DNA from: a virus
Length of the DNA: 42,066 nt
Strand: one strand, 5' to 3'
Virus genome (UHGV): UHGV-0115695
Part shown: piece by piece, positions 15,206-39,607 of the stretch
How positions within the stretch are numbered: the first letter of the stretch is position 1
Layout of the letters: each line of letters begins with the position of its first letter
Program-made: the position numbers and the translations under genes
Notes under the pieces: model-generated
Told to the model about the DNA's origin: nothing
The model's database searches: none
Seen by the model: only the letters and a program-made list of their open reading frames with translations

Positions 15206-15993
15206 GTCTTACCCCCAATAAGGGGATTTGCTCTATTTAATTAGGAATAAGGTCGATTACTGATAGAACAAATCCAGGCTACTGTGTTTAGTAATCAGAT
15301 TTGTTCGTGACCGATATGCACGGGCAAAACGGCAGGGGGTTGTTAGCGCAACCTCCTGCCACCCGCTTTCACGAAGGTCATGCGTAGAAGGCCGCAGCAT
15401 AACTATCACTGATGAGTTCAGGATAGCCAGTGGCTACGGCTCAGTTTGGGTTGTGCTGTTGCTGGGCGGCGATGACGCCTGTACGCATTTGGTGATCCGG
15501 TTCTGCTTCCGGTATTCGCTTAATTCAGCACAACGGAAAGAGCACTGTATGTTGCCGGGCCAGATGTCGGCTGCACAGGGAGTCATTGCCGACCCACGCC
15601 CTAAACACACTCGTAAATGCGCTTAGGGTTGTCTCCCCTGGTATCCAGTTATTCCCCGGCTGGGGATACTCCGCGCGACGCTAATGCGTTTCGTCCCTCA
15701 TGGACTCGTCAGGCGCGCAATGCTCTTACCTGTTGTGTGCCCATTATTAATCACACCGGGCCAGTGCGCCGAATTTGTTTACAAGGAGTCGGAAGACCTT
15801 GCTGACTTACAGGCTATTACGCCGCCATCAGAACAACATCATCGTTTGCATTTATCTTTGTGGTCAGTTTCTAAAAAACCGCAAAGTCGCCAACTCTGAC
15901 GAAAACTATCGTTGTGCTGCCACAACGATAAGAGCACTCGGTGCATTTAAGCCAAGCCCCATAAGGGAGAATGCTCTTACCTGTTGCACAGAT

Positions 15994-16022
15994 ATAAAAA
16001 ATCCCGAAACCGTTATGCAGGC
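15994..16022 (-). terminator. Late-leader terminator tR'
   Basis: Minus strand GCCTGCATAACGGTTTCGGGATTTTTTAT, matching lambda tR' hairpin plus U-tract. Confidence 0.85.
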
Positions 16023-16169
16023 TCTAACTATTACCTGCGAACTGTTTCGGGATTGCATTTTGCAGACCTCTCAGCCTGCGATGGTTGGAGTTCCAGACGA
16101 TACGTCGAAGTGACCAACTAGGCGGAATCGGTAGTAAGCGCCGCCTCTTTTTATCTCACTACCACAACG

Positions 16170-16225
16170 AGCGAATTAACCCATCGTTGGGTCAAATTTA
16201 CCCAACTTTATTCAAAAAGTCAATA
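16170..16225 (-). promoter_or_regulatory. Late promoter pR' with overlapping qut (Q utilisation) site
   Basis: Minus strand TTGACT (plus 16218-16223) and TAAATT (plus 16195-16200) with lambda-like surrounding sequence TTGGGTAAATTTGAC..; lies 40-70 bp downstream of Q. Confidence 0.8.
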
Positions 16226-39133: not shown

Positions 39134-39607
39134 AATGGCAACCTCCTTCAGATAGCGGGTAACGCTACCACCGGAGTTCCTACGCTCATGGGTGGTAGCC
39201 CAGACGGGGGTAGGAATACCGGCTCTGAAGGATACCGGCCAGCCCGAAAGCTGCCCCGCCTGGACTACCATAATTCTGATGATGTGGCGTAAAAAATAAA
39301 AAAATACAATCAGCCACCACACCATAAATTTTAGGTGAGTCAAAGCTGCGACACAAAAAAACACGCCTGGCGCGTGTAGTATCGCCTTCAGATAACACGG
39401 GTTCCTACGCCCGGCTGCCGATTTTGCGGCAACCTTTAAACTATATCCCGCGCATTCCTGGTGAGGCAAGAAATTTATAACCGAAAACTGATCATTGCCT
39501 GGATTAATTAACGCTGGCATGCTTAAGCCTCTGCTTAAAAATAGTTCTTCATTTTTCCTGATGCTGTAAACGAGACCCGCCTCTGAGCGGGTCTTTCTGT
39601 CGCTAAG

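Follow-up and report, generated by a model that had tools for sequence, protein, structure and literature searches.

A composite locus downstream of tR'

The question raised by UHGV virus genome UHGV-0115695, of which the whole stretch of 42,066 nucleotides (nt) was analysed (hereafter, the window), is what constitutes the extra DNA that this lambda-type phage carries in its late leader, between the terminator tR' and the holin gene S. The late genes Q (16889-16266), S (15205-14882) and R (14898-14422) are transcribed from the minus strand; coordinates follow the plus-strand numbering, while sequences are given as minus-strand ones, in the direction of late transcription. The segment 15986-15529 is a composite of exchangeable structured-RNA cassettes on a hairpin scaffold that is also present in lambda after tR'. 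Each scaffold unit consists of an arm A, a tip x and an arm B (A-x-B), and the order of the arms in the late transcript is A1 (15986-15970), B1 (15938-15921), A2 (15735-15719) and B2 (15546-15529). The composite begins 7 nt downstream of tR', and its two hairpins, with tips unlike each other and unlike that of lambda, are separated by an unrelated 185-nt module with a short peptide-tag frame (the tag module). The reading preferred here, to which about an even chance is given, is that of a composite RNA-cassette locus whose processed late-leader RNA would engage the trans-translation system of the host.

The alignment against lambda that the preliminary description of the locus had called for defined a replaced segment between tR' and S. 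The interval between Q and S measured 1060 nt in the window and 676 nt in lambda, with flanks of 97-98% identity, and the additional sequence amounted to 384 bases in three cassettes, all on the minus (late-transcript) strand. Thus, it was correctly described beforehand that the pR'-qut-tR' segment is lambda-like (~97-98% identity) and that extra DNA lies between tR' and S, the classical position of morons. Lambda holds a single A-x-B unit, in which a 39-nt tip separates arm A (44789-44805) from arm B (44845-44862) and which starts 7 nt past the U tract of tR'; therefore, the window exchanges the tip of lambda for a longer array and contains no duplicated unit. Moreover, the segment is not an ancestral one common to most lambdoid phages, as lambda and its closest relatives differ from it in having one hairpin with a different tip and without the tag module, and the full composite was found in two of 5426 complete E. 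coli genomes, EC6622 being an example.

A tandem duplication of a unit of about 250 bp followed by divergence had been proposed before on the grounds of two motif pairs, and both pairs were indeed present twice, above the chance expectation; such a duplication would have no role except perhaps as a mark of a site where morons insert. In particular, AATGCTCTTACCTGTTG occurred exactly twice on the plus strand (15719-15735 and 15970-15986; 0.13 matches expected with up to three mismatches), and CACAACG[GA/AT]AAGAGCACT was found at 15529-15546 and 15921-15938 (0.11 expected); the first copy of the former lay ~10 nt away from the position given for it (15709-15726). Each motif type is an imperfect reverse complement of the other, so that together they form the arms of hairpins. 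However, the copies are unequally spaced (251 vs. 392 nt), the best local alignment of the two supposed units was the 17-nt arm alone, and the interiors x1 and x2 aligned with a score of 12, compared to a shuffle mean of 12.0. As the spacings differ and nothing between the arms is similar beyond these 17-18 nt, there is no diverged 250-bp unit; furthermore, one arm pair is already present in lambda, and each interior appears separately in phages that are not related to each other, namely T7-like, N4-like and Jersey-like phages and P1, where it is 88-96% identical. The duplication, refuted by the alignment to lambda and by that of unit against unit, is hardly credible. Since each cassette occurs alone in unrelated phages, the locus was assembled by cassette exchange at the conserved arms; for example, in locus L297 the order A-hammerhead-B directly follows a lambda tR', without a tag module.

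A conserved hairpin scaffold with interchangeable tips

Hairpin 1 of the window is formed by arm A1 (CAACAGGUAAGAGCAUU, 15970-15986), an exact repeat that provides the 5' strand, pairs with B1 in the fold and is the same arm as lambda 44789-44805, by the 31-nt tip x1 (CUCCCUUAUGGGGCUUGGCUUAAAUGCACCG, 15939-15969), which is also the tip in Klebsiella phage MK54, and by arm B1 (AGUGCUCUUAUCGUUGUG, 15921-15938), the repeat that pairs with A1 as the 3' strand. Hairpin 2 is delimited by arm A2 (15719-15735), an exact repeat serving as 5' strand that could equally pair with B1 and thereby close the tag module, and by arm B2 (AGUGCUCUUUCCGUUGUG, 15529-15546), the repeat on the 3' side, which is identical to lambda 44845-44862. 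The A-x-B fold is a stem of 18-20 bp, CAAC-A-GG-U-AAGAGCAUUG / CAGUGCUCUU-U-CC-GUUG, with a bulged A and a U.U mismatch, and its folding z-scores ranged from -3.3 to -5.0 in 12 units. In the global minimum free energy (MFE) fold the partners are swapped and A1 pairs with B2, which shows that the arms can replace one another in silico.

A scan of the IMG/VR database with arm B yielded at least 120 loci, and the tips held between the same arms comprised at least 79 distinct sequences of 31-174 nt or more, belonging to dozens of unrelated classes. Among 133 distinct units, the upper stem showed compensatory variants (e.g. AAGAGCA/UGCUCUU changed to AAUGGCA/UGCCAUU), the G.U pairs of the arms appeared on the sense strand only, and the basal motif was invariant. 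Because of the compensatory variants and the sense-strand-only G.U pairs, the A/B element is to be regarded as an RNA helix and not as a double-stranded DNA site. Individual tip classes were also conserved, with apparent compensatory changes seen by eye in two of them, and they look like discrete cassettes rather than filler. Regarding their location, A-x-B units were usually found a few nucleotides (5-12 nt) past intrinsic terminators in lambda-like, T7-like and other phages.

The stem offers what an RNase III site would need, that is, about two turns of mostly Watson-Crick double-stranded RNA (18-20 bp with the bulged A and the U.U mismatch). As in the RNase III stems of the lambda late leader, the T7 intercistronic regions and the intervening sequences of rRNA, the A/B stem is a long imperfect helix of ~20 bp in a polycistronic transcript, and the rRNA intervening sequences excised by RNase III share with A-x-B a dispensable, highly variable tip. 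It differs from them in that its basal sequence (CAAC-A-GG-U-AAG / CUU-U-CC-GUUG) is kept across unrelated phages, a conservation that RNase III alone does not require. Arm B also contains GCUCUUU, the core of rrn boxA; because B covaries with A (e.g. in P1, L220 and L228), the pairing rather than the boxA sequence is conserved, and boxA was rejected as an explanation. An architecture like that of Y RNA was rejected as well, with no YrlA match on the element.

A tag module built like the template half of tmRNA

The tag module (15912-15736) was recognized from partial Rfam matches, distant BLAST searches and an alignment of 41 distinct copies. Its resume context, AUAAAU, and tag frame occupy 15814-15855, and the frame reads GCA AAC GAU GAU GUU GUU CUG AUG GCG GCG UAA UAG from 15849, which corresponds to the 10-codon peptide ANDDVVLMAA followed by two stops. 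An in-frame UAG is located eight codons upstream of the GCA with no AUG between them; hence, as in transfer-messenger RNA (tmRNA), a short tag frame runs from an alanine resume codon to a stop without a start codon or Shine-Dalgarno sequence. A conventional in-frame start was discarded, as the only AUG at the site, which overlaps the resume codon, belongs to a different frame and is missing from phage CBA120, the -2 codon being AUA, GUA or ACA. Positions -6 to -4 relative to the resume codon read AUA, as they do in E. coli ssrA (AAUAGUC before GCA), in which these positions set the resume frame.

All 41 copies maintained the GCN codon, nine further codons and a stop, in 19 distinct frames. The numbers of variable sites at the first, second and third codon positions were 5, 4 and 9 of 10, respectively, the third being the most variable, and the other two frames were broken; by this pattern of substitution, the tag frame behaves as a coding sequence. 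Nine tag variants were seen in one set of copies, and the tags of lambdoid phages, P1, Kuttervirus, Felixounavirus and Erwinia phages had a general pattern of about AN[DE][DEN]xxL[AM][AV]A. The tags included ANDDVVLMAA, ANEEMYLAVA, ANDDLMLMAA and ANDEQFLAVA, together with ANDNTFLAVA in CBA120 (with synonymous GCU and AAU codons), ANDNVFLAVA in JH2, ANDDLMMVAA in P1 and ANDAQFLAVA in Erwinia phage Omen.

The structure evaluated in the 41 copies was specified by the authors and comprised a hairpin (H1), a helix-5-like hairpin and two H-type pseudoknots. Overall, it was 91.5% paired, and 18 of its 34 pairs showed compensatory changes; none of 500 shuffles reached these values of pairing and covariation, and slid controls were 35-48% paired. 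H1 (15856-15886), which stands upstream of the resume codon at the position of tmRNA pseudoknot PK1, had its helices 1 and 2 paired in 93% and 78%, respectively, with compensatory changes such as CUUUG/CAAAG to UUAUG/CAUAA. The helix-5-like hairpin (15802-15831), whose loop contains the stop codons, had helix 3 paired in 100% and showed a GC to AU switch (26:15). Downstream, the evidence was particularly clear for pseudoknot PKa (15769-15801; S1 CAAGG/CCUUG and S2 CCGA/UCGG), which had helices 5 and 6 paired in 99.5% and 99.4%, with changes on both sides of five of its nine pairs; the variants were CAAGG/CCUUG, UGAGG/CCUCA, CGGGG/CCCCG and CUGGG/CCCAG for S1 and CCGA/UCGG and CCAG/CUGG for S2, and further ones were found in P1, JH2 and Omen. 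Pseudoknot PKb (15739-15766; S1 CAC/GUG and S2 GCCC/GGGC; helices 7 and 8) had six of seven pairs changed on both sides. Therefore, the pseudoknots and helix 5 characteristic of tmRNA are found downstream of the resume codon, while the upstream element is a hairpin and not a pseudoknot.

Relation to tmRNA

The structure searches suggested beforehand gave a mixed outcome: ARAGORN detected neither a tRNA nor a tmRNA in the segment, so a tRNA or a canonical tmRNA was rejected, and Rfam gave partial tmRNA and hammerhead matches below the gathering scores. In an E-value-mode scan, the model tmRNA_permuted matched the tag region at 15871-15817 (26.3 bits, E=0.007, gathering score 47), and beta_tmRNA matched 15870-15768 at its model positions 206-304 (17.2 bits, gathering score 84), the partial matches thereby covering the tag frame and the first pseudoknot; thus, the module reached neither an Rfam gathering score nor an ARAGORN call for tmRNA. 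Regarding the tRNA-like domain (an acceptor stem with G3.U70, a CCA end and a T-arm), ARAGORN reported no tmRNA either for the window or for any of the related sources scanned, which numbered more than 70, no tRNA-like element was found in the complete 46.8-kb genome of Sa179lw, and Rfam aligned the template part and not the tRNA-like part. Lacking this domain, the element is not a tmRNA by the defining feature of that class, though it is built like its template half.

The module shares with tmRNA (SsrA) a GCN alanine resume codon after an A/U-rich AUA context, a 10-codon tag of the type AND..L..A (cf. ANDENYALAA), a stop in a helix-5-like loop and downstream H-type pseudoknots. In contrast, it lacks both an acceptor stem with CCA and a conserved T-arm, a hairpin replaces PK1, the downstream pseudoknots are two instead of three, it sits in a phage late leader or a tRNA array, and its tags end in LMAA, LAVA or LAAA and not in YALAA, the dominant tag ending in gammaproteobacteria (PMC10862746; bioRxiv 10.1101/2024.01.29.576913). 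The two-piece tmRNA genes of alpha- and beta-proteobacteria and cyanobacteria resemble the window in the order of stem strand, short loop, GGGG..., stem strand, tag and pseudoknots, and the best partial Rfam matches of the module were permuted models; however, the putative acceptor piece of the window lacks a T-arm, varies among family members and shows no linkage with the tag module. A partial tmRNA is also carried by mycobacteriophage DS6A, which encodes a tmRNA consisting of the tRNA-like domain only, and a similar molecule strongly inhibits tmRNA (PMC4131195). That case is the mirror image of the one described here, in which the template domain alone is kept, apparently under coding selection.

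The tip x1 was considered as the missing tRNA-like domain and rejected, as it had no specific linkage to the tag module, which was found downstream of 2 out of 12 x1 units compared to 6 out of 109 other units. It can be drawn as an acceptor hairpin without a T-arm, and one other tip class has a T-arm and a G.U hairpin in the order of permuted genes; none of these features was conserved or linked to the module.

In the current view, trans-translation requires a single RNA, or two pieces held together by base pairing, with both tRNA and mRNA functions. A template-only relative of tmRNA, apparently under coding selection and spread across relatives of lambda, P1, Felix O1-like, CBA120-like and N4-like phages, would then mean either an unrecognised way of feeding templates to rescued ribosomes or a phage strategy for re-routing or blunting host tagging.

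An antisense motif against host ssrA

The 5' motif of the module, UAGUUUUCGUC (15898-15908), whose GUUUUCG part was invariant in 41 out of 41 copies, is complementary to nt 96-106 of E. coli K-12 ssrA (GACGAAAACUA), which encode tag codons 3-6. This 11-nt match was the only complementarity of at least 8 nt between the module and ssrA, with ~0.02 expected by chance. When 15-mers were evaluated against the K-12 reference, the site at codons 3-6 was the best duplex in 34 of the 41 family members (-12 to -15 kcal/mol), a result reached by 16 of 2000 shuffles. Furthermore, no conserved partner for GUUUUCG was found within the module in the 41 copies, and the phage tag frames do not themselves contain the ssrA codon 3-6 sequence.

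A hammerhead cassette in hairpin 2

The 172-nt tip of hairpin 2 (x2) opens with a type I hammerhead at 15672-15718, which matched Rfam RF00163 with 24.7 bits (E=0.004 in a 2.1-kb search, gathering score 34). Its sequence is GCGCGC-CUGACGA-GUCC-AUGAG-GGAC-GAAA-CGC-AUUA-GCGUC/GCGCG, with the core CUGACGA...GAAA...GUC at 15712-15677, and cleavage is predicted after the GUC, between 15677 and 15676 (slash). Stem I (GCGCGC/GCGCG, 5 bp) is open, while stems II (GUCC/GGAC, 4 bp) and III (ACGC/GCGU, 4 bp) are capped, and all three were recovered by the unconstrained MFE fold. The four alleles found among A-x-B copies differed exclusively at N7 (C, A or U), loop II (AUGAG, ACACG, AUUAG or AUACG) and loop III (AUUA or AAAA). 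The rest of the cassette is a structured tail of 125 nt (15547-15671), which was 95.7% identical in the T7-like Enterobacter phage SDFMU_EhYP and showed compensatory changes in L270.

A core-pattern scan retrieved 83 IMG/VR loci (the L239-L316 set), for which 64 distinct flanks were inspected. Many of these had a short type I hammerhead 20-40 nt upstream of an ATG, with a stem I of 5-7 bp and a GUCC/GGAC stem II, which suggests a routine ribozyme punctuation of phage polycistronic mRNAs. In about 15 loci, including L297 and the T7-like Enterobacter phage, in which it lies between the capsid terminator and the gene of tail tubular protein A, the hammerhead was inside an A-x-B unit. With the known type I hammerheads of phage intergenic regions (RF00163) the one in the window shares the full core, the three helices with stem I open, the GUC and the position on the sense strand upstream of genes, and it differs in being placed inside the tip of a conserved hairpin cassette and followed by a conserved structured tail. 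The location of a hammerhead in a lambda-type late leader was found in no paper of the literature outside subscription papers. Such a ribozyme would offer a concrete mechanism for parting the leader RNA from the late mRNA.

Proposed mechanism and alternative explanations

If the locus acts as a source of processed RNA, Q-antiterminated transcription from pR' through tR' would produce the composite as part of the late leader; being downstream of tR', it would be made only after antitermination. The A/B stems would act as processing sites, probably for RNase III, and the hammerhead cut after 15677 would yield a leader RNA of ~510 nt with a 2',3'-cyclic phosphate and an S-R-Rz late mRNA with a 5'-OH, carried by the 15547-15671 tail. 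After cutting, B1 and A2 could close the tag module as helix 2 does in tmRNA. The released module would then engage SmpB, tmRNA and stalled ribosomes of the host, being tethered to host tmRNA by UAGUUUUCGUC, antisense to tag codons 3-6, and the phage tag would be decoded in place of ANDENYALAA or in competition with it. The precedents at this site are the Q-S morons of lambdoid phages, such as stx genes and tRNAs, and StxS and 6S RNA, both of which arise from pR'-tR' (PMC7547250). The composite shares with them the position, the dependence on Q antitermination and a noncoding late-leader RNA, and it differs in its cargo, which is neither a protein gene nor a tRNA. A more specific version, in which a trans-acting template without a tRNA-like domain docks on ssrA codons 3-6 and masks the host frame while A/B serves as a general scaffold, is regarded as unlikely. 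According to it, the frame on which SmpB and the ribosome resume would be that of the phage, leaving rescued proteins with a phage-specified tag ending in LMAA or LAVA instead of YALAA, and the A/B hairpin would display dozens of interchangeable RNAs, such as ribozymes, T-loop modules and mimics of rRNA helices. In any case, at least 79 tips on one stem represent a catalogue of small structured phage RNAs, possibly including new ribozyme or decoy classes.

Several points weigh against an engagement of trans-translation by a processed leader RNA. Its expression, cleavage and tagging are predictions made from the sequence. In trans-translation as known, the template is linked to a tRNA-like domain by a covalent bond or by stable base pairing; no such domain was found here, and no RNA is known to act as a template in trans. 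About 80% of the A-x-B hairpins have no tag module nearby and must therefore have a function of their own outside this reading. The hammerhead stays below the gathering score of RF00163 (24.7 vs. 34 bits), and no covarying loop-flank tertiary contact was found in it by eye; with such a score and a short stem I lacking that contact, it is a candidate rather than an established ribozyme at physiological Mg2+. A cut by RNase III in the A/B stem is a lead that comes from the title of the work by Daniels et al. in 1988 (cited in PMC7547250), which reportedly announces RNase III processing sites of the Q-mediated lambda late RNA in vivo. Finally, the antisense link to host tmRNA is suggestive, but the match was noticed post hoc, spans 9-12 bp and refers to the ssrA of K-12 alone.

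Among the alternatives, a decoy or antisense antagonist of host trans-translation that is never decoded seems rather unlikely. It would act as a template mimic titrating SmpB, S1, RNase R or a tmRNA-attacking RNase toxin, or its 11-nt antisense seed would block or destroy host tmRNA, which would account for the antisense motif and for the apparent mimics of translation RNAs in related arrays (16S helix 11, T-arm-like hairpins and DicF-like segments); pseudo-ToxI is said to be a precedent for such RNA mimicry by phages. However, a pure decoy needs no intact frame, and yet 41 out of 41 copies keep 10 sense codons and a stop, with changes concentrated at third codon positions and conservative replacements (e.g. 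D to E). The conservation of the module also bears on the possibility, considered quite unlikely, that the locus is RNA punctuation only. Hairpins, hammerhead and tRNA-like tips would then just direct RNase III, RNase P or self-cleavage to polycistronic phage RNA, so as to cut it and stabilise the resulting ends, with the tag module as a hitch-hiking relic of a captured tmRNA. The position of A-x-B units 5-12 nt past intrinsic terminators, the many IMG/VR hammerheads just upstream of an ATG and the 80% of units without a tag module would fit this possibility. A relic, in contrast, would have lost the frame, the resume context and the two pseudoknots, which are kept across lambda-like phages, P1, Kuttervirus, Felixounavirus, N4-like and Erwinia phages, with compensatory changes throughout the module and, in several lytic phages, a promoter-like sequence of its own.

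A two-piece (circularly permuted) tmRNA gene, whose product would be CCA-added, charged with alanine and used without host tmRNA, is very unlikely. The order A1-x1-B1-tag module does match that of acceptor piece, intervening loop and coding piece: A1-x1 would be a minimal acceptor piece (CUCC-C) with a 4-nt intervening loop in which the cut would occur, GGGGCUU with a 14-nt D-loop analogue and B1 would be the 5' end of the coding piece, and A/B would be helix P2. Moreover, a GGGG/CUCC helix whose third pair is a G.U can form in x1, the spacing of GGGGCUU, 14 nt and helix equals that of GGGGCUG, 14 nt and P2 in E. coli, and in some other tips (L078 and L221 type) a T-arm precedes a hairpin containing a G.U, as predicted for such a gene. 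Nevertheless, x1 itself lacks a T-arm, neither ARAGORN nor Rfam detects a tRNA-like domain, x1 is not specifically tied to the tag (2/12 vs. 6/109), tag-bearing phages such as JH2 and Sa179lw carry unrelated tips or none, and the T-arm type places the G.U at 4:69, given the usual 12-bp stack for RNase P. The scaffold might also be read at the DNA level, as a mobile element (such as a miniature inverted-repeat transposable element, MITE, bounded by terminal inverted repeats, or a recombination site of the attC type), since it consists of inverted repeats with a variable centre, present in many copies in many genomes and exchanged like cassettes. This is highly improbable: target-site duplications are absent from the lambda and EhYP junctions and the arm ends CACAAC/GTTGTG do not match the attC cores RYYYAAC and GTTRRRY, for which membership among integron attC sites or MITEs was rejected; furthermore, the G.U pairs of the arms would become A.C mismatches on the other strand, and the units, in the cases inspected, follow the sense orientation of the local transcription unit. 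As for the processed late-leader RNA preferred here, the earlier suggestion that a discrete small RNA may arise from the segment pointed in the right direction.

Distribution and genomic settings of the tag module

Distant BLAST searches located the tag module in ~758 phage records, its carriers being Jersey-like siphoviruses, G7C/N4-like phages, Kuttervirus, T5-like phages, Felixounavirus, P1, lambdoid phages and Erwinia phages. Among the matches listed, the underlying annotation was 'none', 'hypothetical protein' or, in P1, 'dicF-like region'. The module also appeared, unannotated, in 464 of the 5426 complete E. coli genomes, in which 264 of the 507 matching places were on plasmids, as would fit P1-like phage-plasmids. 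In Felixounavirus, it was inside the tRNA array with no A-x-B unit at all, and several lytic phages had a promoter-like sequence for the module just upstream of it. An origin in a bacterial tmRNA gene was rejected, as a contig scan with the PKb core matched only two species representatives, Pseudocitrobacter and Erwinia.

No Rfam family reached its gathering score on the element of the window or on 13 related loci, Rfam has no family for the tag module or the hairpin scaffold, and the inspected records held no identifying annotation of either by the Prokaryotic Genome Annotation Pipeline (PGAP) or by depositors. Likewise, no description of the module, the scaffold or the tag peptides (tag strings included) was found in the literature outside subscription papers. 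The phage tmRNAs named in one survey were those of mycobacteriophages and Bacillus phage G only (PMC4131195), and another study counted 79 bacteriophage tmRNA sequences, unnamed, with a pipeline that kept only complete tRNA-like ends through CCA (PMC11915505).

In P1 (L235, NC_005856; 2498-2760), the leader of the ban operon contains the tag module with ANDDLMMVAA and an A-x-B hairpin, both unannotated, between the annotated 'dicF-like region' and tRNA-Asn/Thr. In CBA120 (L236; 820-3000), ~2 kb of noncoding DNA around the module hold several tRNA-like pseudo-structures with T-arms, 7-bp acceptor-like stems and large insertions, without an ARAGORN call. Related arrays also harboured T-arm-like hairpins, DicF-like segments and real tRNAs. 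Furthermore, a 47-nt copy of 16S rRNA helix 11 (CUUAUCAGCUAGAUGGUGAGGUAAUGGCUCACCAUGGCGACGACGGG; Rfam SSU, E=1e-7) was found in the domain that follows arm B, named 'y', at two IMG/VR loci (L045, 4600-4646, and L056, 1953-1999), and it may be an rRNA mimic or decoy; its stem differs from the E. coli sequence by changes that would leave the pairing intact. The contents of these arrays (rRNA helix, T-arm-like hairpins, DicF-like segments and tRNAs) fit an island that supports translation as well as a collection of RNA decoys.

Other features of the window

The late promoter pR' (16195-16223, minus strand) was detected by the promoter scan with TTGACT as -35 and TAAATT as -10 and is ~97-98% identical to lambda from 44510 onward, and the hairpin and U tract of tR' (15994-16054, minus strand), found as an inverted repeat, were identical to those of lambda in the alignment. 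After B2, an inverted repeat forms the 'y' hairpin (15450-15534, minus strand), closed by GUUGUGCUG/CAGCACAAC and common to lambda; the equivalent domain of other phages has covarying kissing loops (GCUGAU/AUCAGC changed to ACUGAU/AUCAGU). After B1, and overlapping it, the terminator scan found an 11-bp terminator-like hairpin (15906-15931, minus strand), UUAUCGUUGUG-GCAG-CACAACGAUAG followed by UUUUCG, which by comparison of sequences is taken to be a collapsed 'y' domain, as found after B in MK54, IME11 and other loci compared. The tag module's conserved 5' motif supplies the U tract of this hairpin, and in many prophages the A'/B' hairpin itself stands directly upstream of AGUUUUCG. The tip x1 contains, at 15950-15942, UUAAAUGCA, which repeats the resume context of the tag module (UAAAU before GCA, 15854-15847), and from its GCA a 12-codon open frame (APSALIVVAAQR) runs through B1 to a UAG at 15908-15906, probably by coincidence. 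Protein coding by the locus was rejected, as the three plus-strand open reading frames (112, 71 and 62 amino acids) and the minus-strand one (58 amino acids) had no Pfam or PHROG matches and span the boundaries of modules that recombine independently.

Outside the late leader, two RNAs scored above the Rfam gathering scores on the minus strand of the window, namely the C4 antisense RNA (39188-39275; 81.1 bits) and, ~80 nt from it, the Hfq-binding RNA isrK (39356-39433; 69.5 bits), both being regulatory families previously described in phages or prophages.

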